IMG/VR virus record: IMGVR_UViG_2757320830_000006
Source: an uncultured virus (IMG/VR IMGVR_UViG_2757320830_000006)
Lineage: Duplodnaviria; Heunggongvirae; Uroviricota; Caudoviricetes
Length of the DNA stretch: 64,000 nucleotides
Strand: one strand, 5' to 3'
The notes below the pieces were generated by a model, which did no database searches, was not told the DNA's origin, and saw only the letters and a program-made list of their open reading frames with translations. A program made the position numbers and the translations under genes. Below, piece by piece: positions 2,909 through 23,540 of the stretch (its first letter is position 1; the number at the start of each line of letters is the position of its first letter).

Positions 2909-3543
2909 GATTCGGCGGAAGTTCTAATTCCAACAAAGTAGCAATCCTTGAGGAAGGCATGACCTATACGCCAATTTCCATCAGTCCGGAGCAGGCGCAG
3001 TTCCTTGAAACGCGCAAGTTCCAGTTAGACGAAATTGCGAGGATTTTCCGCATCCCGCCGCACATGATCGGCGATTTGGAACATGCAACCTTCTCGAACA
3101 TTGAGCAGCAAAGCTTGGAATTTGTCACTTATACGCTGGAGCCGTGGCTCGTACGCTGGGAACAGTCCATGCAGCGCTCGCTCCTTTCTCCGGAGGAAAA
3201 GAAAAGCTACTTCATCCGCTTTAATGTAGACGGGCTCCTGCGGGGAGACTACCAGAGCCGCATGAACGGTTATTCGACCGGCATTCAGAACGGAATTTTT
3301 TCCGTGAATGATGTGCGGGAACTTGAGAACATGGATCTCCTTTCCGACGAGGAAGGCGGCAATATCCACGTCCTGAACGGAAACGTGGTAAAGCTCGCGG
3401 ATGCCGGATCAGCATACAATCAGAATTCAAACAAGGGGGATACCAATGGAAAAGGCAAACAAGTTCTGGAGATGGGCAAGAAACAAGCTGTCCGATCCAG
3501 CAAATCCCGGACAGGAAACGGAAGAACGGACGCTGTTCCTTGA
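2909..3543 (+). pseudogene. HK97-family portal protein, 3' half only
   Basis: 'FGGSSNSNKVAILEEGMTYTPISISPEQAQFLETRKFQ' nearly identical to the portal at 46371; begins immediately after the IS end. Confidence 0.92.
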
Positions 3544-7155: not shown

Positions 7156-7554
7156 ATGAAAAAGGTCACAAAAATTGGGGAAAACAAAAAGGTCAATTAT
7201 AATGGCAGGAAACTTCGCGCAGCTGCTTACTGCCGTGTTTCGACCGATTCTAATGAACAGGCAGAAAGCCTGAAGGCCCAGAAGGAGCACTATGAAAGTT
7301 ACATCAAGTCGCGCGATGACTGGAAGTTCGCCGGGCTTTATTACGATGAAGGCATCACGGGAACCAAAAAAGAGAAGCGTCCTCAGCTGCGGAAAATGAT
7401 GGCCGACTGCAAAGCTGGAAAGATTGATTTCATCGTAACCAAATCCATCAGCCGTTTCTCCCGGAATACGGCCGACTGTCTGGAACTGACACGAAAGCTT
7501 CTCACGCTGAATATTCCCGTTTACTTTGAAAAGGAGAATATCAAGAACCGCTGA
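7156..7554 (+). pseudogene. Large serine recombinase, N-terminal catalytic fragment
   Basis: 'AAYCRVST...Q...YYDEGITG...RPQL...KSISRFSRN'; similarity to the 63334 paralog ends at FEKENI (about 7544). Confidence 0.9.
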
Positions 7555-7594
7555 AAGCCCATAAATTCAATGGATTTCGGCGGTTCTTTCTTTA

Positions 7595-7616
7595 ATTTGT
7601 CGCTTATTTGTCGCTT
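7595..7616. repeat. Tandem 11-bp direct repeat (ATTTGTCGCTT)x2 next to a 14-bp inverted repeat at 7543-7588
   Basis: Directly visible; resembles tyrosine-integrase arm-type sites. Confidence 0.7.
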
Positions 7617-7664
7617 AATTCTACAATATGAAATTGAATGGTATTGAAAGAGACAATTAAACAT

Positions 7665-8624
7665 TTAAGAATTAGCCACGGTTGCTAATTCAGGGCCATA
7701 TAAATCAAACAAGCTCATTTGTCCGGATTCCTTCATTTTGGGTTCGTATTTGTCCCGAACTTCTTGCATAAATTCTCCAATTGCGTCAGGATGATTTTTC
7801 AAAAACCATTTCACATGATTCTTTATATATTCCTCGCGAATCTGTGGGTCATTAAGATCATTTGGCACACGTTTCATTCTTTCATCAATACTATCAAACC
7901 CATCAAATTTTTCAGAAAGACGTTCTTTTGTCATATCAATATAATCGGGGTTAATGTCTATCCCTATCCCGTTTCTATCTGTTTGTTGGCACACCCTCAA
8001 AGCTGTGCCACTCCCTACAAATGGGTCAAGGACAGTATCTCCGGGATCAGATGATGCTAAAATCATGCGTTCAAATAACCCTTCTGGTTTTTGAGTCGGA
8101 TGTTGTTTCCGATTCTTATTGCAATAATGCATATGAGAAAACTCCCATACATTTCCGGGATTAGCTCCCCGCATATTATTTACGGAACGATAATATTTTT
8201 GTGGAACTCTTACATCGTCCAAATGAAAAACAAATTTTTTAGGGTTTTTTGTGAACATTAAAATATCGTCATGCCGCGGAGAAAAGCCTTTTGTTTTTCC
8301 TATTCCCTGTGTGTAATACCACGTTATCCAAGAATTGAACGTCATTCCCAAATCTTGCTCAAGAATGGTATAAATGTATGAAATATAGCGCATTCCCATA
8401 AATACATACATTGTTCCATCATCTGTAAGAACACGCTTCGCTTCTGTAAGCCATTGACGGGAAAAATCCAAGTATTCATCAAACTTTAATTTATCCTGAT
8501 TGTTTCCGTAATTCTTATTCAAATTATATGGTGGGTCAGTAGCTATAAGACGTATGCTTTTATCGGGTATTTTTTTTAATTCTTCAATAGCATCCCCACA
8601 AATTGTTTTTAATTCTTTATCCAT
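7665..8624 (-). CDS. hpaIM: Type II amino-methyltransferase, M.HpaI-like
   Basis: DPPY precedes 'DPFVGSGT' (beta class); 'WITWYYTQGIGKT', 'ANPGNVWEFSH.HYCNKNRK' recalled from M.HpaI. Confidence 0.88.
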   Translation of the reverse strand: MDKELKTICGDAIEELKKIPDKSIRLIATDPPYNLNKNYGNNQDKLKFDEYLDFSRQWLTEAKRVLTDDGTMYVFMGMRYISYIYTILEQDLGMTFNSWITWYYTQGIGKTKGFSPRHDDILMFTKNPKKFVFHLDDVRVPQKYYRSVNNMRGANPGNVWEFSHMHYCNKNRKQHPTQKPEGLFERMILASSDPGDTVLDPFVGSGTALRVCQQTDRNGIGIDINPDYIDMTKERLSEKFDGFDSIDERMKRVPNDLNDPQIREEYIKNHVKWFLKNHPDAIGEFMQEVRDKYEPKMKESGQMSLFDLYGPELATVANS

Positions 8625-9373
8625 TGATTCTTTTTTGCCTCTCTGTAAAAATCATTAAATGTCCTGCGGGAACTATGCAAATATTTATGGTCAAGAAGCT
8701 GGCACATTTCCCATGTAGTTCTGTATTGATATGTCACATAATGAATATCCTTAATTTGAATCTGTCCTGTTCCAAGGGCGGGGTTATAGTTTATATCTGC
8801 GTCGCTTATAAATTTCAAGTCATAAGCGTTATAATCAACGACTTCCATAATACCGTCAACAAGACCCGTTTTATTGTTTCTTTCAGAATACACACGATGC
8901 TTGATTGAAAGAATAATAAACATAAAATCCGGGTCTTTCACATAAGCCGTTCTGATTCTTGAAAATGAAGTAATATTAGGACCTTTACCACTATTAGGAA
9001 TATCATTTGCTGTGGCTTTTACATCAACATTTCCGGTTAATACAGATTGACCTTTTCTAAATTGAAGGATAATGTCCGCCATTCCCAAACGCTCTTGTGC
9101 TTCAACGTTTATCAAATTGTATTCGTTGTTCTTATCATCTCTAATTCCTGCGAAAACTTCACCCGCCCATGCTTCTATCATCGGTCCGGCAATTTTGTTA
9201 ATATTTTCCAGTGGCAAACCCAATCGTAAATTTGTGTTCATGATAATCTTATTATCATTTGCCGCTTTTCGTTCGTCCAAGATTGCCGTGATTTGCTGAA
9301 TTACAAACGCTGAATCCTCGCGATAGGTAGGCGATTCTTTAGGAATTTTGAAAATCAAATCTTCGTACTGCAT
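8609..9373 (-). CDS. hpaIR: Type II restriction endonuclease, R.HpaI-like (predicted GTTAAC)
   Basis: 254 aa; 'GLPLENINKIAGPMIEAWA', 'GNVDVKAT', 'PNITSFSRIRTAY', 'YNPALGTGQIQIKDIHYV' recalled from R.HpaI; overlaps the MTase. Confidence 0.85.
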   Translation of the reverse strand: MQYEDLIFKIPKESPTYREDSAFVIQQITAILDERKAANDNKIIMNTNLRLGLPLENINKIAGPMIEAWAGEVFAGIRDDKNNEYNLINVEAQERLGMADIILQFRKGQSVLTGNVDVKATANDIPNSGKGPNITSFSRIRTAYVKDPDFMFIILSIKHRVYSERNNKTGLVDGIMEVVDYNAYDLKFISDADINYNPALGTGQIQIKDIHYVTYQYRTTWEMCQLLDHKYLHSSRRTFNDFYREAKKNQWIKN

Positions 9374-9382
9374 TGTATTATG

Positions 9383-9592
9383 TCATCCTTTCTCATTTTG
9401 TATTTCTACAATATCATCAAGCCCGCAGTTTAACGCGGTGCATACTTTCGCAAGGCTTTCCATTGACACCGGTTCACATCGGCCCATTTTGGCAAGAACA
9501 TTCGTGCTGATTCCTGCTTGCTTGCTCATTTCTGTTTTTGTCATGCCTTTATCAATTAGCATTTTCCACAAACGGTTATAATTGTATTTCAT
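9383..9592 (-). CDS. Xre/Cro-C1 HTH regulator upstream of the R-M genes
   Basis: 'YNRLWKMLIDKGMTKTE...GISTNVLAKMG...SLAKVCTALNC'. Confidence 0.88.
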   Translation of the reverse strand: MKYNYNRLWKMLIDKGMTKTEMSKQAGISTNVLAKMGRCEPVSMESLAKVCTALNCGLDDIVEIQNEKG

Positions 9593-9692
9593 GCGCTTGC
9601 CCCTTTGATTGATAAAAGAAATCCATTGAACAGTATAGCATAATCAAGCAGCGAATTAAATAATTTATCACGGTTTCATGATAACCGGGCGG

Positions 9693-9921
9693 TCATTTTT
9701 CCCGCTTGCAATACAGCGTTATATCACCCTTATAGCCTTCAAACACATCGACGCGCGTTATATTGTACAAAATGCCCTTGTATCTTATAACGTGCGCCGT
9801 TGTTATATCATCCCGGTAGCCGATTTGAAACAGTACGTTTTCCGTCACGTTGACGCGGGCAGCAGCAAAGACTTCATCACCGGATAGCTGCCGGAAATAG
9901 GCCCACACGGTAGCAACGGGG
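9693..9921 (-). pseudogene. Phage head-closure/adaptor, 3' fragment from an unrelated element
   Basis: '[16 protein letters not shown]...FQIGYRDDITT...IRYKGILYNITRVD' is a typical SPP1 gp16-like pattern; no proper 5' end. Confidence 0.75.
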
Positions 9922-10545
9922 ACAAGCTGCGACGCACAGGTCAAACACTACACGGAATACATTCAGAAGAATCCGGAATGGGAGTTCGCAGGCATCTACG
10001 CCGACGACGGCATCTCCGGCACGAACACCAAGAAGCGGAATGAATTCAACCGGATGATTGACGACTGCATGGCCGGGAACATCGACATGATTATCACAAA
10101 ATCCATCAGCCGGTTTGCCCGAAACACGCTGGACTGCCTGAAATACATCCGGCAGCTCAAGGGCAAGAACATCCCGGTCTACTTTGAAAAGGAATCCATC
10201 AATACATTGGATGCAAAAGGTGAAGTCTTGCTGACAATCATGGCCAGCCTTGCCCAGCAGGAAAGCCAGAGCCTTTCGCAAAACGTAAAACTCGGCCTGC
10301 AGTACCGCTACCAGCAGGGAAAAGTGCAGGTCAATCACAACCGATTTCTCGGTTATACCAAAGACGAGAACGGCCATCTCATCATTGACCTGGAACAGGC
10401 AGAGATTGTAAAGAGAATTTACCGCGAATACCTTGAAGGCTCCAGCATGGGCAGGATTGCCGCTGGACTTGAAAAAGATGGCATCCTCACCGGAGCCGGA
10501 AATACGAAATGGCACACCAGTACCATCAACAAAATTCTCCGCAAC
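9922..10545 (+). pseudogene. Large serine recombinase, internal fragment
   Basis: '[29 protein letters not shown]...KSISRFARN...[11 protein letters not shown]...[12 protein letters not shown]'; lacks the YxRVST N-terminus and everything after ILRN. Confidence 0.9.
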
Positions 10546-10767
10546 CTAAGCCTCTCGATTTTGATACAATGTAACGATAGCGGATATGTGAAAAAGTCTG
10601 AGAAATACAGCGCTTTCAGCGTTTTTGACAGGTGGCGGCGTTCAGTAGATGTGCTTCTGAACAGCCGCTCTTTTTATGCCCGGAGAGCCAAAAAAGCAAA
10701 ATGCACCCACAATCATACGATAGCCTTTTATCGTGTGATTGTGGGTTTATCGTGTAATGATATGCAA

Positions 10768-10825
10768 CTGAAAAAGCCGGATACCGTCAGCTAATTATTC
10801 AGCATCAGGAACCCGGCTTTTTCAG
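10768..10825 (-). terminator. Terminator downstream of the sigma-like gene
   Basis: CTGAAAAAGCCGG ... CCGGCTTTTTCAG inverted repeat. Confidence 0.65.
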
Positions 10826-10848
10826 CACAGATTATCTCGTATTAAGGA

Positions 10849-11508
10849 TTAACCGAACAGAAACTCCTTCGTCAAACGTTCGGCTTCTTTGAACAGGTCA
10901 TATCCCTGCGTTTTCTGGACACCGATCATCTCGAAGATTTCCGCCTTACTATACCCGGCGTAACCGAGGGTGACGATACGTGCGAGCTTCGGATTCTTTT
11001 TTTCAAGTTCGTTGATCAGGTCTTCCAGAAGCATTTCGACCTTATAATCGTCATCGGCATGGGACTCGGTGCCTGCCGCATATTCCATTTTCTCAAGCTG
11101 ACTCCAATACACCATGCTGCGATCTTCCTTCTCGTAAATGTTACGGAACGGGCAATTCGCACAGCATTCGTGATTATCGCCCTTCTTTTTAGGGCAGGGT
11201 TTCTTGCTGCCGTCAGGCTGTGGTACAAGGCAGCGGCTGTGGCGATTGGAACCGAGCTTTTCATCAAGCAATTCGTTTACTTCGGCGTTGAAGATAGACC
11301 ATGCCTGTTTCTCCTGATTTTTCGGTACCGGAACAAACATCACCAGATAGCGGATTCCACTCTTTTCCCATGTTCTCAGATTCGTCATGTTGGCTCCGAG
11401 ACCTGCTGCGTACTCCTTGTTCACCAGCTGCGGGACGAGAACCTCGTCTGCCTGCAGCGGTGCATCGTTATAAGATTTCCAGTTCTTCTGATTGCCTTTG
11501 ATTGCCAT
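10849..11508 (-). CDS. Sigma-70 region-4-like transcription factor with Cys-rich segment
   Basis: C-terminal HTH-like 'LARIVTLGYAGYSKAEIFEMIGVQKTQGYD'; central 'RC...PCP...CCANCP'; AAGGAG RBS. Confidence 0.65.
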   Translation of the reverse strand: MAIKGNQKNWKSYNDAPLQADEVLVPQLVNKEYAAGLGANMTNLRTWEKSGIRYLVMFVPVPKNQEKQAWSIFNAEVNELLDEKLGSNRHSRCLVPQPDGSKKPCPKKKGDNHECCANCPFRNIYEKEDRSMVYWSQLEKMEYAAGTESHADDDYKVEMLLEDLINELEKKNPKLARIVTLGYAGYSKAEIFEMIGVQKTQGYDLFKEAERLTKEFLFG

Positions 11509-11782
11509 ATAAGCTTTCTCCTTTCGGCTTTCAAACCGAGGCGGAGACCGCTCATATGGCTGCCAGTATTGTTAGACATCGTTGGTCACCTCTTGCGGAT
11601 TGCTCCGCCTCATTTCGGTGACCAGCCGTTCGTAAGCTGGCACTCTATTCACTTGTCTATCCATCACCTGACTACGAACACACCTCGTGGCCACGAAGAA
11701 GGTGAGTCAGATTCTGGAGAACCTTTTAACGTCATGTCCGGGACGTTTACAGGAAATGAATAAACTATTTCATCACTGTAAA
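11509..11782 (-). ncRNA. Candidate structured 5' leader RNA of the sigma-like gene
   Basis: At least seven complementary segment pairs, GNRA-type loops and mutually exclusive pairings (see findings). Confidence 0.5.
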
Positions 11783-11807
11783 ATAATTTGCGATGACAAA
11801 TCTAAGA

Positions 11808-11836
11808 TTGACCATCGTGCTAAACTGTGGTAAAAT
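11808..11836 (+). promoter_or_regulatory. Sigma-A promoter for the defence operon
   Basis: TTGACC-17 nt-TAAAAT with TG extended -10. Confidence 0.7.
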
Positions 11837-11923
11837 TAAATATCATTGGTTTCATGTCGGACGGTTTCTCTCCTTCTTGTATCTTGAGTATACGGGAAAC
11901 GGCATTTTTCACCGCTCCCGAGA

Positions 11924-11953
11924 GTACACGGCTGTACATGACCGTACATGTAC
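11924..11953. repeat. GTACA(C/T)G repeats with 10-bp spacing, putative operator
   Basis: GTACACG-gct-GTACATG-acc-GTACATG-tac. Confidence 0.6.
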
Positions 11954-11974
11954 GCGCGGAAGGAGGTATCTCTG

Positions 11975-13111
11975 TTGGCAGACACTGAATTCAAAATCTT
12001 TGCGAAACTGCTCGCGACAAAGTACCGACGGAACAGAAAAGTCGAGGTTTTTGCCCAAGAGTTATTTGAGAAGATTTACTTGCCGGAATCCGAAGATGAT
12101 CCCGTTGACGAAACCCTGCCTCGAACATACAAGGCCTACTACTACGGTCAAAATGACATAACGGAGCTCGCATCCAAGATTTCCAAGTCTTTGGATCCAG
12201 CAAATTTTGTAGGATATATACAGACGGATTCAGATGACACGATAGAGTATCTCTGCGATTCGTTTAGACCATGGTTCCCGGATATTGATGAGAGCAATTA
12301 CTGCTCTTGCATAGCTACGCGGTTTAAAGACATCATTGACCGTGCGGCAGCTCCAAAAACAAAAGATACTTCCCTTGCGGCTACAAGCGGAGGCGTCCCT
12401 GCCGTTCAGATGGCGACACTGAAAGAAAAATACGGCATAGGCCTTGTCGCCGAAACCGGAAGCGTATGCCCAAATGACGGATGCCAGAAATCTCTGTTTG
12501 GATACAGAGACGGACATACGGAACTCATCTATAACGTTGCAGTCATTAATCCGGATGGCAGTTCAGCCAATGCATCCAATCTGATAGCGCTTTGCCCGGA
12601 ATGTGCGGCCAAGTATGCAGCCCTTAAAACGCCCGACGATATTGCCCGGATGACAAAGATAAAAGAAGCTCTTGTTAATGAGCACGACGATCAGGAGATC
12701 CGAGCGGACCAGCATGTGCAGGAAGGTGTCAGGCGGGTGATAGAAAAGATCCCATTCATCAAGCCGCCAACAGATATTGATCTGAATTACGACCCGGTTC
12801 CAGTCAGACAAAAAATCAGCGATTTCGCGCTGTATCTCCGCATCAAGACAGACGTGAACGTTTACTTCAATGATGCGCATGAGGTGTTTCAGGAAATGGG
12901 CCGTGAAGGAAAGCTGCGATTCAATCCTTTCTGCCAGCAGGTCCGGTACATGTACGTGAGTTTTCGCGATAAGGGATACAGCCAGGATAAGATTTTCTAT
13001 GAAATGACGAAGTGGCTGTACGACGCGACGAATGAAAAATGGCGTGACTGCGAAATCGTCATCGCATATTTCACGCAGAAATGTGAGGCATTTGATGTTA
13101 TTGCCGAATAA
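11975..13111 (+). CDS. ABC-three-component / Lamassu LmuA-like effector (unknown N-domain + degenerate HNH-like domain + CTD)
   Basis: 'CPNDGC...NLIALCPEC' HNH-like Zn motif; C-terminus 'IVIAYFTQKCEAF' typical of ABC-3C CTDs; TTG start after AGGAGG (ATG at 11948 possible). Confidence 0.75.
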   Translation: MADTEFKIFAKLLATKYRRNRKVEVFAQELFEKIYLPESEDDPVDETLPRTYKAYYYGQNDITELASKISKSLDPANFVGYIQTDSDDTIEYLCDSFRPWFPDIDESNYCSCIATRFKDIIDRAAAPKTKDTSLAATSGGVPAVQMATLKEKYGIGLVAETGSVCPNDGCQKSLFGYRDGHTELIYNVAVINPDGSSANASNLIALCPECAAKYAALKTPDDIARMTKIKEALVNEHDDQEIRADQHVQEGVRRVIEKIPFIKPPTDIDLNYDPVPVRQKISDFALYLRIKTDVNVYFNDAHEVFQEMGREGKLRFNPFCQQVRYMYVSFRDKGYSQDKIFYEMTKWLYDATNEKWRDCEIVIAYFTQKCEAFDVIAE

Positions 13112-13322
13112 GCTTTATTCATATAACGAAAGCACGCTTTCCAAATTTCCTGTTGTTCTCCGTGAACTTCGTACGCAGCCGCTGGGCGTGCATGAACTGT
13201 ATCGTCGCGTGATAAAGAAAATGGACGGCGTTAATGAATTTATAGATGTGCTCGACTGCCTGTATGCACTTAGAAAGATTGAGTACGACGAAAATGAGGA
13301 AGTACTGCGCTATGTTGTATGA
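13095..13322 (+). CDS. ABC-three-component middle component (LmuC-like)
   Basis: 75 aa, 'MLLPNKLYSYNES.LSKFP...FIDVLDCLYALRKI'; overlaps both neighbours. Confidence 0.75.
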   Translation: MLLPNKLYSYNESTLSKFPVVLRELRTQPLGVHELYRRVIKKMDGVNEFIDVLDCLYALRKIEYDENEEVLRYVV

Positions 13323-15027
13323 GATAGAATGCGACCAGTTCGCTGAGACAATAAATGGACAGCGTGTCCCGAGAGGAAGAATCAGATTCCGCCCGGGACT
13401 GAATACTGTCCTTGGAGACAGGCAGGGTGAAAACTCCATCGGGAAGTCTACCTTCCTGCTGACTGTTGACTTCTGCTTTGGCGGCAACGATTATCTGGAC
13501 AGCGAGAAAACGAAAAATAACGTGGTCCGCTTCGTTGGCAACCACGTCATTAAATTCGCTTTTAAGTTTGGAGACCGTATCGAGTATTATTCCAGAAATA
13601 CTCTGGACCCTACGCACGTCAGTAAATGTGATGAGAATTATAACGAAATAGGTGATGCGATTTCGCTGGACGATTTCCAGAAGCATCTCTTCACTTCCTA
13701 TCAGATTCAGACGGCACAGTGCAGCTGGCGTAGTCTGGTAGGACGATTTGCAAGAATCTACGGCAGACATAATTACAGCGAGGAGTTTCCGCTGCAGTAT
13801 GGAGGAGAACCTGATGCTGATGCGATTAAGGCGCTGGAGCAAATCTACGGCGTTTATGACCTTGTGAAGGAATATGAAGATTTCTACAAGGCAAAGAACA
13901 AGCGCAAAACCGTCCGAACGAATGCCGCCAACTTGGGAGAAATCGTAACCATCGCAAGGACAAAGAAACAGGTCAAGGCCAACACCAAGGAAGTTGAAGA
14001 ACTCGAGAAGCAGCTTGAGGAACTTCTCAATAAGGAAGACAGATCCCTCGCGGAGAAGGATACCACTCAGCTTGACAAGGCCGCTGAAATCAAAGGACAG
14101 ATTACGGTGCTGAAACGGCGAAGGACAAGGCTTGTGTCGCAGCTGAATGCCGTCAAGGCAAACCTTGAGGAAGGCCTGACGCCAACGTCAGATGATATTC
14201 AGGATCTGCAGGAGTTCTTTCCGAAAGCCAACATAGCCAAACTTGAGACGATTGAGCACTTCCATAAGAAGATGCAGACTATCCTGACGGATGAGATGTC
14301 AGAAGAAGTTCAGCGACTGGAGGCGCTGATTGCGGAATCCACAAAGGAAATGCAGCGCCTCGAAGACGAGCAGCGTCAGCTCGGTGTTCCGACGCATGTA
14401 TCAAAGAAGTTTCTGGATGAGACTGTCCGCCTGCGCAGTCGAATTAACTTCCTAAAGACGCAGAATGAAGGATATGATGAATCACAAAAGCTGGCAGCGG
14501 AAACAAAGGATGCCAAGACTCGTATGGAGGATGTCCGGAAAAATCAGCTCGATAGTGTCCAGGCTATGATCAATCAGGAAATGGTCAGGCTGAATGACTT
14601 TATATACGATGGAAAACAATATGCTCCGGAGATTAAATTCTCTGATGCCAAGAACGGAAACCCGAAATATACATTCGGATGCGACTGGAACTCTGGCACG
14701 GGAGAAAATTACAAGAACCTCATTATTTTTGACCTGAGCGTATTCAAGACCACTGAGCTTCCGTTTATCGTCCATGACTCGCTGATCTTCAAGAACATTG
14801 CGGACCTGCCGATTGATAAGATCATGCAGCTCTATATGAACAGCGGGAAGCAGGTCTTCATATCGTTTGATAAGCACAAGGCATTTACAGATTATACAGC
14901 GAAGACTGTCTACGATACCCGCGTAATTGAGCTTCATGATAACGGAGGAGAACTGTTCGGATGGTCGTGGGCTAAGAAAGCGGAAAACGAATCCGGCGAA
15001 GAGTCGTCAGAAGATGACGAAAAATAA
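13312..15027 (+). CDS. SMC-like ABC ATPase (DUF2326, LmuB-like)
   Basis: Walker A 'NSIGKST', long coiled coil, signature 'SGTGE', Walker B-like 'FIVHDS'. Confidence 0.82.
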   Translation: MLYEIECDQFAETINGQRVPRGRIRFRPGLNTVLGDRQGENSIGKSTFLLTVDFCFGGNDYLDSEKTKNNVVRFVGNHVIKFAFKFGDRIEYYSRNTLDPTHVSKCDENYNEIGDAISLDDFQKHLFTSYQIQTAQCSWRSLVGRFARIYGRHNYSEEFPLQYGGEPDADAIKALEQIYGVYDLVKEYEDFYKAKNKRKTVRTNAANLGEIVTIARTKKQVKANTKEVEELEKQLEELLNKEDRSLAEKDTTQLDKAAEIKGQITVLKRRRTRLVSQLNAVKANLEEGLTPTSDDIQDLQEFFPKANIAKLETIEHFHKKMQTILTDEMSEEVQRLEALIAESTKEMQRLEDEQRQLGVPTHVSKKFLDETVRLRSRINFLKTQNEGYDESQKLAAETKDAKTRMEDVRKNQLDSVQAMINQEMVRLNDFIYDGKQYAPEIKFSDAKNGNPKYTFGCDWNSGTGENYKNLIIFDLSVFKTTELPFIVHDSLIFKNIADLPIDKIMQLYMNSGKQVFISFDKHKAFTDYTAKTVYDTRVIELHDNGGELFGWSWAKKAENESGEESSEDDEK

Positions 15028-15043
15028 ACTGATGGAGAAGCGT

Positions 15044-15337
15044 ATGCATATTAGCTACAGACCCTTATGGGTAATACTTGCAGAACGGGAAATGACAAAA
15101 AAGGATCTGCGTGAATTAAGCGGAATCAGCACAGCTTCCCTTGCGAAGCTGGGCAAAGGCGAAAACCTGACGACCGATGTGCTTCTGAAGATCTGCGAAG
15201 CATTAAACTGCAATATCAATGAGATTGTAGAGACGGTTCCTGATGATGACGACAAGAAGGGAACCAGGAATAAACCGGAGGAAAAGAAGAATGCCGCAAA
15301 GTACAAACAAGGCACTCAAAGAAGCCAGTCCTTATAA
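15044..15337 (+). CDS. Xre/Cro-C1 HTH regulator upstream of BREX
   Basis: 'ISYRPLW...MTKKDL...GISTASLAKLGKGENLTTDVLLKIC'. Confidence 0.88.
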   Translation: MHISYRPLWVILAEREMTKKDLRELSGISTASLAKLGKGENLTTDVLLKICEALNCNINEIVETVPDDDDKKGTRNKPEEKKNAAKYKQGTQRSQSL

Positions 15338-15920
15338 TGCAGCGATAACAAGAGAACAGTTTTTATTTTATGAAATGCGTACCACAGCAAAGCTTGTAAA
15401 CGATGGGCTTGATAAGGATGCTGTGGTTGAACATATTGTGTCAGAGAATCTGTTTCAGTACCCGACGGAGAAATCCGTCCGGAAGATGGCACTTGCCTGC
15501 CTCCGGAGACTGGATGCAATGGAAGACGATACGCTTGTTTCGGCCATCGCGACACAGCCGAGCGATGTGGCAAAGCAGATCTGCCTCTATGCCATGATGC
15601 GGCAGTACCGTCTGGTATGGGACTTCATGCTGACGGTCATCGGCGAGAAATACCAGAAGCTCGACAGCTCCTTTGGCAGAGTGGATCTGAATACATTTTT
15701 CATGCGTCTGCAGGAGCAGGATGACTGGGTGGCAACGTGGAGCGATTCCACCATTACAAAAGTGCGTCAGGTGCTGACGAAAACGCTCGTGGAGAACGAC
15801 TATCTGGACAGCACAAGAGCTGACCACTTGAACCTGGTGCTGATCAGTCCGGTACTTGAAAACGCAATCAGGAACGACGGAATGACGGAGGCGCTGCCTG
15901 CCTTCAACTGCCTGTCGTAG
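15291..15920 (+). CDS. brxA: BREX protein BrxA (DUF1819)
   Basis: 'YNAAITREQFLFYE', 'ENLFQY', 'WSDSTITK'; first gene of the BREX order. Confidence 0.9.
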   Translation: MPQSTNKALKEASPYNAAITREQFLFYEMRTTAKLVNDGLDKDAVVEHIVSENLFQYPTEKSVRKMALACLRRLDAMEDDTLVSAIATQPSDVAKQICLYAMMRQYRLVWDFMLTVIGEKYQKLDSSFGRVDLNTFFMRLQEQDDWVATWSDSTITKVRQVLTKTLVENDYLDSTRADHLNLVLISPVLENAIRNDGMTEALPAFNCLS

Positions 15921-15928
15921 GAGGAACC

Positions 15929-16489
15929 ATGAAAGGAAATATAGACGAGAGGCTGGACAAGGTACGAGAGCTCCTGAAAGACCCGGATTTCTTGGAAGGA
16001 AACGGCCTCAGCAATGAAGTAAATATCCGGATGTTCTGCTATGAAGCAAAAGATGAGATGCGTGTCCGCCACTTTGTGCTGCAGATCCTGACAGACCAGG
16101 CACTGCCGTGTCATCTGAAAGAGAATAATTTATATGAAATCTTTCTTCAGTGCTGTGAAGATAAGCGCATCCTATCCCGTATGGCCGATCAGGAGAAAAA
16201 GCGCGGAAAAGACCAGCTTGAGAAGATGATCGAGAAATCCGTGGGCGTACAGGCATATGTAGATAAGATCTGTGCAGAGCCTCCGGAAAAGGGAGACGTG
16301 CTGCTCCTGACCGGCGTCGGGGATGTGTTCCCGTTTATGCGCATTCATATGCTGCTGGAAGCCCTGCAGCCGAGAGTGGGCGGTGTTCCGATCCTCGTGA
16401 TGTATCCGGGCACCTTCGACGGAAGGCACGTGAAGCTTTTTGACAGACTTAAACCGAACCCTTACTACAGGGCGTTCAATGTGATATAG
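15929..16489 (+). CDS. brxB: BREX protein BrxB (DUF1788)
   Basis: 'GLSNEV', 'LTGVGDVFPFMR.H', 'MYPG.FDG', 'YYRAF'. Confidence 0.92.
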   Translation: MKGNIDERLDKVRELLKDPDFLEGNGLSNEVNIRMFCYEAKDEMRVRHFVLQILTDQALPCHLKENNLYEIFLQCCEDKRILSRMADQEKKRGKDQLEKMIEKSVGVQAYVDKICAEPPEKGDVLLLTGVGDVFPFMRIHMLLEALQPRVGGVPILVMYPGTFDGRHVKLFDRLKPNPYYRAFNVI

Positions 16490-16502
16490 GAGGAACCGCC
16501 AG

Positions 16503-19500
16503 ATGAGAATTCAGGACATGTTTGTCGATGACATCAATCGAAAAATAAACGGTGTCATCAAGGTAGACCAGGAAGATACGACGACCGAGCAGGAGCTCAA
16601 CGAGTACGTCATTACGAGAGAGCTGAAACGGCATTTCATTACGTTTTTCAACTATTATGACGACGCATTCGATGCTCCAACAGCGGATATCGGTGTCTGG
16701 ATTTCCGGCTTCTTTGGAAGTGGTAAATCTCACTTCCTGAAGATGCTCTCCTATATTCTTGAGAACAGAACCATCAACGGCATTCCGACGGTTGAGCGGT
16801 TCCGCAAGAAGTTTGCGGATGATCCTGCGACTTTCATGCTGATTGACAAGGCTGCGAAGGCTCCGACGGAGACGATCCTTTTCAATATCGACATTGAGGG
16901 CTTCAGCAATAAGGACAATACCGCCGTGCTGAAGGTTTTTGCGAAGATGTTCTATAACCATCTCGGCTTCCTTGGCGAAGATTTGAAGGTGGCAAAGCTG
17001 GAGCAGTTCGTCGCGAAACAGGGCAAGACCGAGGAGTTCCGCCGTGTGTTTGAAGAAAAGAACGGCGCTCCGTGGGTGGAGACACGTGAGTCCTTTGGCT
17101 TCTTCGAGGACGATGTTGTAGAGACGCTCGAGGAAGTGCTCGGTATGAGCGAGACAGCTGCCCGCAACTGGTTCAATGGAACGGAAACAGCTGAGATCAG
17201 CATCGCTCAGCTTGTATCAGAGATAAAGGACTATGTGAACAGCAAGCCGAAGAACTTCAGGCTTCTCTTTATGGTTGATGAGGTCGGCCAGTATGTCGGC
17301 ACGGATACAAACCTGCTCCTGAATCTTCAGTCTCTCGTGGAGAAGGTTGGAAGCGAGTGCGGCGGCAAGGTCTGGATTGTCTGCACTGGTCAGGAAGCCA
17401 TCGACGAGATCATCAAAGTCCGCATGGATGAGTTTTCCCGCATTCAGGCAAGATTCAAGACAAGGCTTTCCCTGTCCTCCTCTGCTGTAGATGAAGTCAT
17501 CCAGAAAAGACTCCTCACCAAGAAGCCGGAAGCAAGGACTGTCTTGACAGACCTGTATGAGCGCAACGACTACGTGCTGAAGAACCTGTTCAGCTTCACT
17601 GATTCTGTGCTCGATATTAAAGGGTACAGCGGTCCGGAAGAATTCGTTGTGAACTATCCGTTTGTGCCGTATCAGTTCATTCTGATTCAGAAGATTTTCT
17701 CGGAAATCCGCAAGCACGGCGCAGCCGGAAAACACTACTCCGGGGCAGAGCGCTCGATGCTGGACGGCTTCCAGATCGTGGCGAAATCCATCGAAGACAA
17801 GAACGAGCATGCCATCGCTCCGCTTTATCCTTTCTATGACAGCGTGCATTCCTTCCTCGACGGCTCTATCCGCCGCGTGATCGAGCGCTGCCAGAAGGCC
17901 GCGGATAATCATGACGGCATTGAAGACTATGACGTCAAGGTATTAAAGCTCCTCTACCTCATTCGCTACATCGATGACGTAAAGGCAAACCTTGATAACA
18001 TCGTCATTCTGATGTCGGATGATATCCGGACGGATAAGATCGAGCTCCGGCAGACGGTGCAGAAGTCGCTCGACCGCCTGAAGAGCCAGAACTATATTGA
18101 CCGCCGCGGCGATGCCTATATCTTCCTCACCGATGAGGAGCAGGATATTGCGCGAGACATCGCGAATACATCTGTAGATACCGCCAAGATCGTTGAGCGT
18201 ATCGGGCAGATGATCTTCGGCGATATCTATACACAGAAGAAATACCGGTATGGGAAATACGACTTCCCGTTTGATGAGATGGTGGATTCCACTTCCATCG
18301 GTGCGGTGACTGGTGGCATGACGCTCCGCTTCCTAACAGTAGCTGCGGACGTGACGGACAAGCAGGAACTGCGTCTGATGACGGAATCCAAGGGAGCCGC
18401 CATTGTCGTGCTCGCAGATACGCCATACTACGAGTCTCTGGAAAACGCCATGAAGATTCGCAAGTATGTGAAGCAGCGCAATGTGAATCAGCTGGCGAAA
18501 TCCGTGCAGGACATCATTCGCGACCAGCAGGACGAGGCCGGAAAGTATGAAACCTCCGCCAAGGAAGAACTTGAGAAAGCCATCGCCGGTGCGGAGTTCT
18601 ATGTAGACGGCGAGCATATCGAAATCAAGAGCGGAACGCCGGTTTCCAAGATTGATCAAGCTCTCGAATATCTTGTGGCGCACGTCTACAGCGAGCTCGA
18701 CCTGATTACAAAGAATGCGGAAACGGATGCAGATATCATCGAGATTCTGCGCGGAACCAATCCGGAAATGGCCGGTATGGAGAACAACCGCGATGCTGCT
18801 GCCAAGGTCGAGGAGTACCTCGAAATGCAGTCCATGAAGAAGCTTCCGACCTCGATGGACGACATCCAGACGCGCTATCAGAAGATTCCGTACGGCTGGA
18901 AGGAAATCGACATCGCCGCGGTTGTGGCACTTCTGATTTATCAGCAGAAGGTTACGATTAAATACGGCGGCGCACAGATTCGCCCGGACAATCCGAAGCT
19001 TCCGGATATGCTCCGCAAAAAGACAGAGCGCGGCAAGGCCATGATTTCCATGAAGCAGTCTGCCTCCGCGCAGAAAATGAAAGCCGCAAAAGAGATCATG
19101 CGGGAGTACTTCGACATCATGGACGTGCCAGATGATCAGGATGCTCTCGTTAAGCTGATTCTGGACAAGTTCAAAGATCAGAAGCAGCATTACGAGGAAC
19201 TGAACAGCCGGTATGCGGGCCACAAATACCCGGATCACGACAAGGTAACAGCAGCCATCAAGCTGATGGACGACGTGCTCTCGCAGGAGAAGGACGACAT
19301 CGCGCTGATTGACCGTCTGGTAGCAGACGAAACGAAGCTGTTTGACAGCAAGGACGACATGCAGCCGGTCGAAGCGTTCTTTAAGAACCAGGTTACGGTG
19401 TTTGATTCTGCAGTGAAGATGGAAGCCGATCTCCGGAACGACCTGCCGTATATTCAGAAGGATGAGGAAACCAATGAAGCGCTGAACCAGATCCGGAAGA

Positions 19501-20018
19501 TCACACTGGTAAACGGCAGCAATCCGGCTGTCTACAGACAGATTCCGGAGCTCAATGGACTGATGGATAAAGTCCGTGCCGGGCATAATAAGCTGCTCGA
19601 GGAAAAGCGTGCAGATCTTCTGGAGATTGTGCGCCAGTGCCTCGCTGAGATTCATCAGGCGGCAGGCGAAGGCGGCGAATTCAGAAATGTCATAGAGAAG
19701 GCGGACAACTACTTCACGCAGATGAAGAGTCAGATCGCCACCACCAGAACTATTGTCCTGCTCGACGGCATGACCACACAGATGTGGAACTACAAGGACG
19801 ACACCGTTGCGGCGATTGAATCCGCAAAGAAGCCGAAGAAACCGGTAAAGCCTGTGCAGCCGGATCAGCCGAAGAAGCATATCAAGAACTGCTATCGTCA
19901 GGCGATTTTCAAGCAGGCAACGCTGGAAAGTGAAGACGATGTAAATGACTATGTGGAGCGGATGCGCTCCTACCTGAATGCGCTTCTGAAGGACTGCGAC
20001 GGAATTAAACTTAACTGA
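16503..20018 (+). CDS. brxC: BREX P-loop ATPase BrxC
   Basis: 'DINRKINGVIKV', 'WISGFFGSGKSHFLK', 'VDEVGQY'. Confidence 0.96.
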   Translation: MRIQDMFVDDINRKINGVIKVDQEDTTTEQELNEYVITRELKRHFITFFNYYDDAFDAPTADIGVWISGFFGSGKSHFLKMLSYILENRTINGIPTVERFRKKFADDPATFMLIDKAAKAPTETILFNIDIEGFSNKDNTAVLKVFAKMFYNHLGFLGEDLKVAKLEQFVAKQGKTEEFRRVFEEKNGAPWVETRESFGFFEDDVVETLEEVLGMSETAARNWFNGTETAEISIAQLVSEIKDYVNSKPKNFRLLFMVDEVGQYVGTDTNLLLNLQSLVEKVGSECGGKVWIVCTGQEAIDEIIKVRMDEFSRIQARFKTRLSLSSSAVDEVIQKRLLTKKPEARTVLTDLYERNDYVLKNLFSFTDSVLDIKGYSGPEEFVVNYPFVPYQFILIQKIFSEIRKHGAAGKHYSGAERSMLDGFQIVAKSIEDKNEHAIAPLYPFYDSVHSFLDGSIRRVIERCQKAADNHDGIEDYDVKVLKLLYLIRYIDDVKANLDNIVILMSDDIRTDKIELRQTVQKSLDRLKSQNYIDRRGDAYIFLTDEEQDIARDIANTSVDTAKIVERIGQMIFGDIYTQKKYRYGKYDFPFDEMVDSTSIGAVTGGMTLRFLTVAADVTDKQELRLMTESKGAAIVVLADTPYYESLENAMKIRKYVKQRNVNQLAKSVQDIIRDQQDEAGKYETSAKEELEKAIAGAEFYVDGEHIEIKSGTPVSKIDQALEYLVAHVYSELDLITKNAETDADIIEILRGTNPEMAGMENNRDAAAKVEEYLEMQSMKKLPTSMDDIQTRYQKIPYGWKEIDIAAVVALLIYQQKVTIKYGGAQIRPDNPKLPDMLRKKTERGKAMISMKQSASAQKMKAAKEIMREYFDIMDVPDDQDALVKLILDKFKDQKQHYEELNSRYAGHKYPDHDKVTAAIKLMDDVLSQEKDDIALIDRLVADETKLFDSKDDMQPVEAFFKNQVTVFDSAVKMEADLRNDLPYIQKDEETNEALNQIRKITLVNGSNPAVYRQIPELNGLMDKVRAGHNKLLEEKRADLLEIVRQCLAEIHQAAGEGGEFRNVIEKADNYFTQMKSQIATTRTIVLLDGMTTQMWNYKDDTVAAIESAKKPKKPVKPVQPDQPKKHIKNCYRQAIFKQATLESEDDVNDYVERMRSYLNALLKDCDGIKLN

Positions 20019-20082
20019 TGCCCCAAATCTTTGATTTGGCTGGCAGAAGTTATACAGAGTAGAACTAAGAGAGGAATCTTTC

Positions 20083-23000
20083 ATGGATAAGAATGCAATA
20101 AAGAAATACGCAGTCTGGGCACGAAATGAACTCATCGAGCGCGTTTCACAGAAAGCGGATCAATATGAGATCAGCGCGGATGCTGATCCGACTGCGGACT
20201 CTGCACATGGAGTTCTTCTGACAGCGGATGAGAAGAAGCAGCGTGCGGCTCTGATCGCGCAGGTAAAAGAAAAAGGACAGGATCAGGTGATGGAGGAGGT
20301 TGCCTACACCTGGTTCAACCGCTTCTCTGCCCTGCGTTTTATGGAGGTCAATAACTATCTTCCTTCCCGCGTCCGTGTTTTTACGGATGAAAATGGGGCT
20401 TTCAAGCCGGAAATTCTTTCTGATGCGATCCATCTGGAGCTGGACGGTCTCGATATGGAGAAGGTCTATGCGCTGAAGGATGCCAATGACGATGACGCGC
20501 TGTTCAAGTATCTCATCATCACGCAGTGCAATGCGCTCTCGAACGTTCTGCCGGGAATGTTCCAGAAGATCGCAGACTACACCGAGTTGCTCTTCCCGGA
20601 CAATCTGCTCCGGGAAGGAAGCGTTGTGGAACGAATGATTACTGATATTCCGGAGAAAGACTGGAATGTAGAAGAGGGCGGGCAAATTGAAATTATTGGA
20701 TGGCTTTACCAGTATTACATGTCGGAAAAACATGAAAAGGTAGTAAATGCTATTGGAAAGAAAACTGTAGAGAAAGAAGATATTCCAGCTGCGACGGAGC
20801 TATTTACACCTGATTGGGTAGTTCGCTATATCATTGATAATTCTGTCGGAAGATACTGGATTGAACGGAATTCAAACAGCAATCTGAAAAATGTATTGGA
20901 GTATTTTGTCGCGCCGAAGGATGGCAATATTTCGATTGTGAATGAAAAGATAACTCCAGAACAGCTCACCGTATTCGATCCTTGTATGGGCAGTGCTCAC
21001 TTTGGGGTCTATGCCTTTGATGTGCTCGAAAAGATTTACACAGAGTACGGTTATACAGAGCGTGAAGCGGCGGCGTTAATCGTGCAGAATAATTTGTTCG
21101 GACTCGATATTGATGAGCGTGCTGCACAGCTTGCCAGTTTTGCCATCACTATGAAGGCGATTCAGTACGACAAACGATTCCTGAAGCGTGGTATTCAGCC
21201 ACACTTCTATGAGATAAAGGAAAGCAATCATGTAGATCCTTTTACGGTAGATTACTTTGCAAACGGAAATGCAAGCCTTAAAAGAGACATCCAGTCAATC
21301 ATCAATGATACAAAAGACGCGAAAGAGTATGGCTCTATTATTCAGATAAAGCCGGTTGATTTTAATGCACTTTTTGAGCGGTTTGATGAAATTAAAGATG
21401 ACATTAGTCTGAGCCAGATTGATGCGCTGAATACCTTACTTCCGCTGGTGCGGGAAGCAAAGATTTTGTCGGATAAATATGCCGTTGTGGCGACGAACCC
21501 GCCATATTTAAACAAACTGGATGCCCGCTTGAAATCATATATAACCGAGAACTACAAAGATTACTCCAGTGATCTTTTTAGCGTGTTCATGTATAGGAAT
21601 TTTTCTTTTTGCAAATATGCTGGATATTCTGGTTTTATGACACCTAATGTGTGGATGTTTATTTCTTCATATAAAAAACTGAGGGAGTACATTATCAACT
21701 CAAAGTCAATGGCTGTATGTGTTCAGCTTGCAAAGGGAGCATTTTTTAAGGAGGCCACAGTAGACATATGCATGTTTGTTTTACAAAATTCTTCAGATAG
21801 AGATGGTTTATACATCCGCCTTGAAAAATTTAACGGTGGCATGGACTTACAAAATGAAAAGCTCCTTGATGCAATAAATGGTGACTGTAGTTATACGTAT
21901 ATTAGGAAATTGCATGATTTTACTCGAATTGATGGGATGCCTTTTGCTTATTGGATAAGTAGTAAGTTTGCCTACATATTTGAGACGGCAAAGCCACTTT
22001 CAAAAGTAGCTCCACCTAAGCAAGGATTAGCGACAGCTGATAACAATCGATTCTTGAGGTTGTGGCATGAGTTGCGATTTTCGAGCATAGGTTTTGGAAT
22101 GAAGGATTGCGATGAAGCTGAAAAAAGCGGTATGAAATGGTTCCCTTATAATAAGGGAGGAGCTTTTAGAAGATGGTATGGTAATAGGGACTATGTCGTA
22201 AATTGGGAGAATGATGGATACGAAATAAGGAATTTTAAAGATGATAAGGGAAAGGTGAGATCGAGACCTCAAAACACAAATTATTATTTTAAACCTTCTA
22301 TTACATGGTCTGATCTTACGAGTGCGAGTTTTTCTGGACGATATTGTGAAGGCGGATTTATTTTTGACATAAAAGGATCAAGTGGGTTCCCTTCAAAAGA
22401 TAATCATCTATATTTACTTGGCCTGCTTAATTCAAAAATATCTCAGGAGTGTATTTCTGTACTTAATCCAACAATAAGTACACAAGTTGGAGACATGTCA
22501 CGGATACCAGTTTTTATTGACAATGACAAAAAAGAGGCAGTTAACAGTCTTGTTGAAGAATGCGTAAACATCAGTAAGAATGATTGGGATTCTTTTGAAA
22601 CATCATGGGATTTTAAGAAACATCCATTTATTGGTAATTATTCTAAGATAAGCGAAGCCTTTTCCTCTTGGACAGAGACTTGTGAGGGACGATTTAAAAG
22701 GCTGCTTACCAATGAAGAGTCTATAAATAGCCTTTTTATAGATATCTACGGACTAGCAGGAGAACTATCTCCAGAAGTTGATAAAGATAATATTACTGTT
22801 AGTTTAGCCGATAAAAAGCAAGGAGTGAAAAGTTTTATTTCCTATGCTGTTGGTTGTATGATGGGGCGTTATTCATTGGATGAAGATGGCCTTGCATATG
22901 CAGGCGGAGATTGGAATGCTTCAAAGTACAAGACATTTCTCCCAGATAAGGATGCTATTATTCCGATTACGGATGATGAATATTTCACGGACGATATTGT

Positions 23001-23526: not shown

Positions 23527-23540
23527 AGGAGGCGAGGTTT

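Follow-up and report, generated by a model that had tools for sequence, protein, structure and literature searches.

A repeat array in the leader of a phage-borne Lamassu-type cassette: autogenous control is more likely than a lysogeny switch

When a defence operon stands back to back with an early gene of a temperate phage, does the DNA between them decide lysogeny, or does it regulate the defence operon itself? We asked this of positions 10849-13111 in a 64,000-nucleotide stretch (hereafter the window) of an uncultured virus of the Caudoviricetes (IMG/VR record IMGVR_UViG_2757320830_000006), where an LmuA-like gene, the first of a Lamassu-type defence operon, is divergent from a gene for a protein resembling region 4 of sigma factors. 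A preliminary description of this interval had proposed a non-canonical lysogeny switch, in which the N-terminal domain of the LmuA-like protein binds a set of GTACAYG repeats and couples Lamassu-type sensing of foreign or broken DNA to prophage gene control. The switch as there stated is not supported, since array, leader and promoter travel with the cassette (loci L003 and L011, below), and we found no evidence for an element that decides lysogeny. The explanation to which we give somewhat better than even chances is a mobile, phage-borne defence cassette under autogenous control, which occupies a cargo slot back to back with an early operon of the phage. Autoregulation of this kind, similar to that of RptR (discussed below), is more likely than a lysogeny switch because the window contains the array only once and because, outside phages, the array accompanies the cassette.

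The array comprises three exact units with a period of 10 nt, GTACACG at 11924 and GTACATG at 11934 and 11944, and a fourth, degenerate unit, GTACGCG; the spacing given in the preliminary description was correct, and the cluster occurs only once in the 64 kb. The listed open reading frame (ORF) of the lmuA-like gene begins at ATG 11948, but the likely start is TTG 11975, 7 nt after the Shine-Dalgarno sequence GGAAGGAGG and at the point where homologues begin, which therefore places the repeats in the leader and not in the ORF. With this start, the three exact units lie 51-25 nt before the start codon and the array ends 2 nt before the Shine-Dalgarno sequence. Statistics within the window are modest, with 3 matches to the paired GTACAYG pattern against 0.52 expected, a count also reached by 4 of 100 shuffles, and it is the comparison across loci that decides.

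For that comparison, we scored the best three-copy tandem in the 90 nt before the start codon of related loci (L numbers), using windows 300-210 nt upstream as controls. Of 27 related leaders, 24 carry three to six direct repeats immediately 5' of the ribosome site, and in 24 the best tandem has a period of 10. A tandem score of at least 5 was found in 24 of the 27 leaders, compared with 2 of 26 control windows, and in 21 leaders the tandem was reached by no more than 5% of shuffles. The set of 27 contains near-duplicates (L005/L006, L014-L016 and L029-L031); LmuA identity across the surveyed loci is 23-51%, so these are not near-identical copies of one another. Further arrays were found in L018, L019, L021 and L036 and in nine genome loci, among them loci for proteins in which the N-terminal domain is joined to CTD6 without an HNH domain (L107, L108, L117) or to other C-termini (L106, L110). 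The repeated word depends on the lineage: GTACAYG, GATACA, CGGACT (4-5 copies), GGGACAA, TGGWTCAA, GGATCA, TGGTACG, AGTTGG, GGGGCG or TGCCTACA. On the strength of this comparison, we take the GTACAYG array to be a conserved cis element of the cassette leader, and such arrays, judged from sequence, are not chance.

What does the array follow? NACHT proteins that share one body with exchanged N-termini offer a way to view this. With the group B N-terminus, a remote homologue of the LmuA N-terminal domain (94.9% by hhalign), the period is 11 and 8 of 9 loci score at least 5; with the group D N-terminus the period is 9 (12 of 14 loci at or above 5). Group C reaches this score in 3 of 7 loci, and none of 11 NACHT loci with other N-termini has an array. 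That the period is set by N-terminal family while the NACHT body stays the same is the best sign of a match between N-terminus and array. The arrays show no such agreement with the sigma-like protein, the HTH_26 protein, the HNH-like domain, CTD11, the middle component MC7 or the ATPase. Two of these were considered as readers of the array. The sigma-like protein was rejected, as residues 172-218, which include its helix-turn-helix (HTH), are identical in the window and in L001, where the array reads TTGTCGG, the cargo is different and no GTACAYG cluster is present. The HTH_26 protein is unlikely, its HTH region being conserved across loci with differing arrays. The suggested link between the LmuA N-terminal domain and the repeats is thus supported comparatively, in that arrays track the N-terminal family, and binding of the array by this domain, which we call the head, would be the most economical reading. 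The acidity of the domain, the lack of an HTH fold and the arrays of the unrelated family D speak against the same link, and we return to them below.

The earlier count of about 130 unexplained N-terminal residues was accurate. Residues 1-130 are modelled by AlphaFold2 (AF2) as all-helical and with confidence (predicted local distance difference test, pLDDT, 83-96), and no Pfam model covers them. The HTH fold that had been looked for in these residues did not appear: structure comparison gave neither an HTH nor any clear fold match above noise. A profile of the domain found no Protein Data Bank sequence at E <0.01, with no RptR chain among the 6 weak matches, a comparison of sequence and not of fold. 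The head has 207 relatives at E <=0.001 in a representative library (one per 50%-identity cluster) and is N-terminal in all of them. Of the 150 relatives listed, 30 were sampled for diversity of length, and in these the head is joined to NACHT (11), CTD11 (2), CTD6 (2), TPR (2) or WD40 (1); the remaining 12 comprise 10 without a Pfam match, one DUF87 and one PKD. The suggestion that the same domain might be found on different effectors was thus borne out, with CTD11, CTD6, NACHT and others behind it and, at one and the same position, arrays before each of the forms inspected. One 4.8-Mb assembly (G001, 10% contamination) has nine matches to the head, on contigs C510, C313, C160, C225, C221, C169, C57 and C439; they include CTD11 forms that have a TGGTACG array, one form with CTD6 (C439), and a 313-aa form next to an SF1 helicase, an HTH_26 gene and a gene for an HhH-GPD protein.

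Behind the head of the LmuA-like protein, a basic linker leads to an HNH fold that retains two CxxC-type cysteine pairs and an asparagine. The segment of the HNH motif lacks histidine in 32 of 33 aligned family members, which are all those that cover the segment, at positions that we take to correspond to the canonical motif, and the domain is likely a non-catalytic zinc module. No N-terminal enzymatic effector domain (Cap4, Sir2, hydrolase and the like) was recognised in the LmuA-like protein. The rest of the operon is nevertheless familiar. It has an ATP-binding cassette (ABC) ATPase resembling SMC (structural maintenance of chromosomes) proteins, a small middle component, and an effector protein that ends in an ABC-3C C-terminal domain, and by this domain content we class it as a type II Lamassu or ABC-3C system without a recognisable active effector. 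The lmuA-like, MC7 and ATPase genes each have a full-length PHROG family. MC7 follows the lmuA-like gene in all 35 loci with sequence there. The ATPase matches PADLOC models PDC-M68B (5.7e-15) and LmuB (8.2e-8), the closer PADLOC models being the candidates PDC-M68A/B; it also matches phrog_5467 from residue 23 (E 1.2e-132) and, below the family cut-off, the NCBIfam TrlF-family ATPase (4.1e-10).

A fourth gene, for a small Cro/C1-type HTH_26 regulator, has an orthologue directly after the cassette in every locus with this head that has downstream sequence. These include forms in which the head is joined to CTD6 and accompanied by MC2 and another ABC ATPase (L118) or is found with an SF1 helicase (L119), and the gene also follows a stand-alone head protein (L120) and the NACHT protein of L060. 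Identity to the protein of the window is 40-77%, with a nearly invariant HTH region. The module behind HTH_26 changes, being BREX, a type I, II, III or IIG restriction-modification (RM) system, a UvrD-nuclease with Dcm, or an HhH-GPD protein; brxA comes after the lmuA-like, MC7 and ATPase trio in L002, L003, L005-L008, L010 and L011.

The strong plus-strand promoter of the preliminary description is present, complete with an upstream TG, and is the sole plus-strand site in 10700-12200 in a consensus scan, a kind of scan that over-calls. The promoter is conserved in the aligned related leaders (alignment A4), and 23 of 30 related loci have an extended -10 element 105-190 nt ahead of the start codon; the leader of the window's lmuA-like operon would be about 130 nt long. 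Before the -35 lies a palindrome of the type TTTGCG(T/A)TCGCAAA, with equivalents in L010, L012, L014, L017, L033 and L120. TGCGTTCGCA palindromes or TTGCG half-sites occur between about -175 and -199 in about half of the 30 loci (half-site background 0.31 per 260 nt), and several loci carry a further TTTGCG-type half-site within the promoter spacer. The element is a candidate site for the conserved HTH_26 protein.

Between promoter and array, a conserved block contains, as described before, a minus-strand TATACT that lacks a consensus -35; the consensus scan calls no leftward promoter here. The block is kept in leaders without a sigma-like neighbour (L003, L009, L010, L011), a similar one is present in the NACHT locus L060, and in many loci it reads TATACT or TATAAT on the minus strand, which by eye is the better -10. 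A structured RNA in the lmuA leader was tried and rejected: for nine leaders, RNAalifold predicted nothing beyond one hairpin of 5 pairs (-0.84 kcal/mol), which lies inside the palindromic repeats, and Rfam returned for this leader only a manA match at E 0.29. Pairing of the array with the coding region was rejected likewise, as reverse-complement words are absent from the first 1.2 kb in 8 of 10 loci, with isolated matches in 2, and the first 1.2 kb of the window's own lmuA-like coding sequence has none.

Taken as an autoregulated cassette, the locus would work as follows. Transcription from the rightward extended -10 promoter would run through the leader into the lmuA-like, MC7, ATPase and HTH_26 genes, with the array acting as operator for the cassette's own product. 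The likeliest reader would be the N-terminal head, perhaps together with the basic linker. Bound to DNA, the head would form a roadblock between promoter and ribosome site; bound to mRNA, it would instead occlude the ribosome site. Either way, the outcome would be autogenous control of a potentially harmful operon, to which HTH_26, acting at the promoter, would add a second conserved layer.

Several observations weigh against a head that reads the array. The head is strongly acidic: its net charge ranges from -1 to -14 in 21 sequences (120 residues) and has a median of -10 in 33 sequences (residues 1-125). Such acidity is unusual for a nucleic-acid binder and is offset only by a short basic patch near residues 11-22 and by the basic linker. 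It occupies the usual effector position of Lamassu and NACHT proteins, and it may be no more than an effector or adaptor. Group D is not related to the head by hhalign, so that arrays are not tied to one fold, and they may belong to the leader or the slot. Periods of 9 and 11 nt do not match the helical repeat of DNA. The array of L060, the only NACHT locus seen with exactly this head, is weak (score 4). Lastly, an array some 80-110 nt downstream of the predicted transcription start is in an unusual place for a repressor.

The explanation that best survives beside autogenous control builds on these points: the head would be an ordinary effector or adaptor like other swappable N-termini, while the arrays would be read by a host factor or an unseen small gene, or act in the mRNA as a standby site or spacer, and the co-variation would come from the exchange of leader and first domain as a single module. 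We regard this as possible, if on balance unlikely. A head that is always N-terminal, acidic and fused to diverse C-termini is what it would lead one to expect, as are the arrays of the unrelated family D and the 41 of 42 viral NACHT-form relatives that bear other N-termini on the same body, and L060, the one with this head, shares the leader block as well as the domain, consistent with joint exchange. A host factor, however, would not account for motifs as unlike as GTACA, CGGACT, GATACA, GGATCA, TGGTACG, AGTTGG and GGGGCG at one position, and the period fixed for each N-terminal family (10, 11 and 9) indicates a matched reader. The lack of a conserved structure in the RNAalifold analysis and of a pairing partner in the ORF also count against this explanation, and no other component of the cassette is both constant in presence and variable in sequence.

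To weigh the lysogeny switch, we must consider the leftward unit. The Cys-rich, region-4-like factor of the preliminary description is indeed divergent from a gene whose LmuA assignment rests on CTD11 and PADLOC, and its ORF, which encodes a Zn-binding protein, is laid out as an N-terminal beta/alpha domain, a cluster of four cysteines and a C-terminal region-4-type HTH. It matches phrog_2513 (3.2e-12) and no Pfam family above cut-off, and belongs to a family with 53 homologues of about 220 aa each. Among 28 sequences, C93 is invariant and C105, C116 and C119 are each present in at least 90%. The AF2 model shows a beta sheet, a long helix and the Cys cluster in the N-terminal half, and a C-terminal bundle (residues 151-218, pLDDT 87-93) for which Foldseek finds region 4 of SigL (3hug_K; TMt 0.66, root-mean-square deviation (rmsd) 2.3, prob 0.99, and 0.97-0.99 for 3hug as a whole), BldN (6dxo_A; rmsd 1.8 over 60 columns) and region 4 of SigH. 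There is a weak match to extracytoplasmic function (ECF) sigma factors (E 0.003), and the relatives of the divergent gene in L012, L014, L017, L023, L025 and L028 match Pfam Sigma70_r4 or r4_2. Neither Pfam nor NCBIfam gives a Sigma70_r2 match for the protein of the window, and nothing in the model resembles region 2; it is therefore a region-4-only protein and not a sigma factor.

Ahead of this gene lies a stretch that aligns with the full DUF2800 RNA model (positions 1-158) with E 3e-4 for the 351 nt searched and a score of 32.8 bits, where the gathering score is 60.2; nothing in the window reaches the gathering level. Similar sub-threshold matches (31.5-33.3 bits) lie about 55 nt before the sigma-like start in L049, L050 and L053, and a fourth, in L052, lies further 5' and is cut at the contig end. 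At the corresponding position, L017, L023, L025 and L029 have above-threshold DUF2800 RNA (72-134 bits), and 14 of 40 predicted pairs show compensatory change among five sequences. Because of these like matches, the positional agreement with above-threshold copies and the compensatory pairs, we accept the stretch as a probable divergent member of the DUF2800 RNA family. In these loci the RNA adjoins the region-4-like gene and not the DUF2800 gene itself; a search for a second copy before the replication genes of the window (33300-34400) found none at E <=1. In relatives, the sigma-like gene leads to p108, DUF2800, an Enc34-type single-stranded DNA-binding protein (SSB) and PolA, and so opens an early replication operon, while in the window it is detached from the replication genes (29392-33689), which have an upstream region of their own. 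In a survey of the sigma-like family, 2 of 399 genomes of the class matched, too few for a census of neighbours, and a metagenome scan gave 15 loci, mostly short.

Read as a switch, the -35-less leftward promoter (-10 TATACT, 11892-11887) would be activated from the array, which lies at about -44 to -73 relative to it. Firing of the sensor would free the LmuA-like protein, which would oligomerise on the array, block its own operon and turn on the unit of DUF2800 RNA and sigma-like gene, such that the prophage would respond to foreign or broken DNA. Known systems offer parallels: in solved Lamassu complexes LmuA is held as a monomer, then released and oligomerises; face-to-face promoters are the switches of phages 186 and P2; and SARP and CII-type activators bind direct repeats next to weak -35 regions. 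Nor is the placement random, as a divergent gene for a protein of 175-300 aa lies immediately upstream of the lmuA-like gene in many loci. It has Pfam Sigma70_r4 in the six loci named above, belongs to the sigma-like family of the window in four (L005, L008, L021 and L032; 25-28% identity) and encodes other HTH proteins elsewhere; DUF2800 and/or an Enc34-type SSB follow it in seven loci. Bona fide DUF2800 RNA lies between the two units in the four loci with above-threshold copies and upstream of the NACHT cassette in L062. The conserved TATACT block, a better -10 on the minus strand by eye, and the lack of a recognisable catalytic effector also fit.

We nevertheless judge this switch improbable. 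Promoter, block and array persist in places without a sigma-like or phage neighbour: L003 and L011 retain all three without the sigma-like gene, and the L011 cassette with its leader adjoins MatE and PAP2 and has no phage neighbour at all. The identical sigma-like HTH stands beside other cargo with another array in L001, and the slot beside sigma-like relatives (L001, L041 and L047 among them) holds other cargo, namely an LlaJI-type RM system, a holin or an AAA_13 system. A switch would also have to contend with an array that occurs once in the window, a sigma-like gene detached from the replication genes, an acidic N-terminal domain, a leftward promoter that the scan does not call, and a conventional HTH regulator (HTH_26) encoded within the operon. 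As to repressors, the preliminary description had noted that there is no CI/Cro pair. This holds for 10849-13111, and no HTH repressor pair flanks 11508-11975; in the window as a whole, however, there are two Cro/C1-type HTH_26 genes (15032-15337 and 9383-9592). Inspection by eye of the ORFs of 45 aa or more in 33200-40100, where small ORFs were not scanned against Pfam, showed no HTH protein. One relative (L046) has a LexA/S24-type repressor beside the sigma-like gene, which is a further point against the switch; in the 162-kb provirus record that contains L002, the only S24 peptidase is about 100 kb away, which we judged uninformative.

A more far-reaching proposal would take swappable heads on Lamassu effectors and NACHT NTPases in general to be sequence-specific readers of lineage-private arrays, each family with its own period; the output of these immune sensors would then be transcriptional or translational and not enzymatic. 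Once foreign DNA ends or a phage protein had been sensed, such heads would oligomerise on the array, switch the face-to-face promoters, tune the BREX or restriction module and, in prophages, fire the early operon led by DUF2800 RNA and the sigma-like gene; we consider this a long shot. Finally, an origin of the repeats and promoter-like words by chance, without function and in an intergenic region of mixed AT/GC content, is extremely unlikely: shuffles of the window alone do reach the paired pattern and promoter scans do over-call, but 24 of 27 leaders agree in position, copy number and period despite a changing motif, and neither the control windows nor the 11 NACHT loci with other N-termini have such arrays.

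The coordinates of the cassette, of the leftward unit and of the BREX operon downstream are collected in Table 1.

Table 1. Features of the cassette, its leader and the adjoining units in the window (+ and -, strand;., no strand assigned).
Feature	Position	Strand	Basis
Sigma-region-4-like protein, 219 aa	10849-11508	-	Foldseek, PHROG, homologue conservation
Probable divergent DUF2800 RNA motif (RF02960), 161-nt stretch, leader of the sigma-like gene	11556-11717	-	cmscan, sub-threshold
Operator-like element TTTGCGATGACAAA, immediately before the -35; right arm of an imperfect inverted repeat	11787-11800	.	conserved in 9 aligned leaders
Predicted lmuA-like operon promoter, TTGACC-17-TAAAAT with TG-n before the -10	11808-11836	+	consensus scan, 10/12 matches
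Conserved leader block CTTGTATCTTGAGTATAC, includes minus-strand TATACT (11887-11892)	11868-11893	.	leader alignment
Three GTACAYG direct repeats (11924-11953), 10-nt period, and fourth degenerate unit GTACGCG	11924-11957	+	sequence, comparison
LmuA-like effector component, 378 aa	11975-13111	+	Pfam CTD11 E 1.3e-27; PADLOC LmuA 2.9e-10
N-terminal head domain, aa 1-130	11975-12364	+	AF2 model
Lys/Arg-rich basic linker	after head, before HNH fold	+	sequence
HNH fold without catalytic His residues, aa 142-243	12398-12703	+	model and alignment
CTD11, aa 245-378	C-terminal part	+	Pfam
Middle component MC7 of ABC-3C (LmuC position), 75 aa	13095-13322	+	Pfam PF20292 E 3.5e-23; phrog_6259
SMC-like ABC ATPase (LmuB position), DUF2326 C-terminus	13312-15027	+	Pfam PF10088 E 1.4e-26
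Small Cro/C1-type HTH_26 regulator, fourth cassette gene	15032-15337	+	Pfam PF13443 E 3.7e-20
Type 1 BREX: BrxA, BrxB, BrxC/PglY, PglX, PglZ, BrxL	15243-28285	+	Pfam and PADLOC, all six matched

The interval sits inside a mosaic of mobile DNA. On its left flank are the remains of phage head and holin genes, pieces of serine recombinase genes (7156-7554 and 10054-10794) and, at 7665-9592, a type II RM cassette. The left phage remnant consists of portal, ClpP-like protease, capsid, connector and holin without tail genes, and an IS3-family transposase gene (1646-2713) abuts the portal gene (2713-3543), which matches only positions 185-321, the C-terminal part, of its Pfam model. The two fragments are overlapping pieces of recombinase genes with the RM cassette between them, and that cassette consists of genes for an N6/N4 methylase and for an HTH_26 protein 39% identical to that of the Lamassu cassette, and of a 254-aa ORF that belongs to no family; a head-completion gene fragment lies at 9693-9944. 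This arrangement (7156-10794) suggests an insertion or a rearrangement at that end of the element which carries the recombinase. To the right, the BREX operon ends with a gene for a 349-aa HATPase_c protein directly after brxL (28300-29349), which has no other family match. Beyond it lie the minus-strand replication genes, for PolA, an Enc34-type SSB, DUF2800 and a 120-aa protein, and then a plus-strand block for a nucleoside deoxyribosyltransferase-like protein, primase, SNF2, a DUF1492 sigma-like late regulator, HNH and terminase; the structural genes past the terminase block have about 60% GC. Metatranscriptome contigs from four runs cover 10813-16500, both divergent units included. The contigs of one run abut at 11852/11853, which looks like an assembly break, and a contig of another study begins at 11856, without loose ends; contigs of such RNA libraries carry neither strand nor transcript ends and may include carried-over DNA, and we drew no start site from them.

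Some related loci have features of their own. In L005, L008, L018 and L032 the element lies just downstream of a gene for a TRAM/uracil-5 RNA methyltransferase (RumA/RlmD-like), which may reflect a shared integration site; L005 and L018 have a SymE-toxin-like ORF and a conserved ORF of 94 aa in the interval from methyltransferase gene to element. The cargo of L001 (4104-5688 and 1528-3831), beside a sigma-like gene 90% identical to that of the window, encodes a 306-aa protein of an 'LCGGTFF' N-terminal family, a 219-aa protein, an AAA_13 ATPase and HsdM, and may be another three-component ATPase system with its own TTGTCGG array. In L001 (6826-8564) and L002 (6844-8130), two serine recombinase genes lie in tandem, of which the first is interrupted near residue 289 (289+295 and 289+137 aa, respectively), either by a conserved frameshift or as a shared pseudogene. 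L001 further has a PemK/MazF-like toxin gene (10394-11112) preceded by a pemK RNA motif above the Rfam threshold (64.5 bits).

How does this design compare with known systems? Against type II Lamassu and ABC-3C systems (LmuA-LmuC-LmuB; DdmABC of Vibrio cholerae), the cassette lacks a recognisable active effector and has an acidic, all-helical head, and it adds three conserved features: HTH_26 as a fourth gene, a direct-repeat array in a long leader, and a restriction-type system linked on the downstream side. The closest regulatory parallel is RptR (PMC12255303), which represses an RM/DarTG defence island via three 9-bp direct repeats located 58-31 bp before its own start codon, a repression relieved on infection. 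Both loci have three short direct repeats just before the first gene of an island with a restriction system downstream, and the RptR array is read by the island's own product, for which the cassette of the window offers a candidate. The differences are that RptR is a free 79-aa protein with a conserved TAGCTA site overlapping the -10, whereas the candidate here is a domain fused to a Lamassu or NACHT protein, and that here the motif differs by lineage and the array lies in the transcribed leader.

The C proteins of RM systems are similar in having a small Cro/C1-type HTH gene right before a restriction-type module and a palindromic element at the promoter, and the HTH_26 paralogue beside the window's own type II RM system extends this likeness. 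In contrast to C proteins, HTH_26 here is the last gene of a Lamassu-like operon and stays while the downstream module changes, the palindromic element being its candidate site. In phage lambda, rexAB lies beside cI, a defence operon next to a switch, and in the locus of the window, likewise, a defence operon and the early lytic operon of a temperate phage stand back to back. However, there is no CI/Cro pair here, the leftward gene is region-4-only and lies behind a structured RNA, and the array, unlike the lambda operators, consists of direct and not inverted repeats and belongs to the cargo. The window's RF02960 copy, for its part, shares position and strand with the above-threshold matches of L017, L023, L025 and L029; it differs from them in its sub-threshold score. 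A literature search found no paper on the DUF2800 RNA motif, and one on Lamassu and ABC-3C regulation found no account of this design, most of its matches being judged without full text. The parts are of known kinds: type II Lamassu, BREX, C-protein-like HTH regulators and DUF2800 RNA. What is new is their combination, in which a Lamassu or NACHT head, a lineage-private array with a head-dependent period, a constant HTH_26 and a changing restriction module share a fixed slot beside an early gene led by DUF2800 RNA.

The regulation of defence islands is little known, and RptR, BrxR/CapW and the C proteins are among the few worked examples. Phage-borne Lamassu and NACHT cassettes, as a class, have one design in common, with a conserved promoter that has an HTH_26 partner, a long leader and an array that follows the head in word and period. 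The orphan DUF2800 RNA motif, in turn, can now be placed as the probable leader of a region-4-only regulator that opens the early operon of widespread temperate phages with PolA, SSB and DUF2800. Should swappable heads really act as readers in the wider sense considered above, superinfection might draw a response from a resident phage. If the array is indeed read by the head, the locus would offer a testable case in which an immune sensor is coupled to its own expression and possibly to the downstream restriction or BREX module, and a role would be assigned to an uncharacterised domain with 207 relatives.

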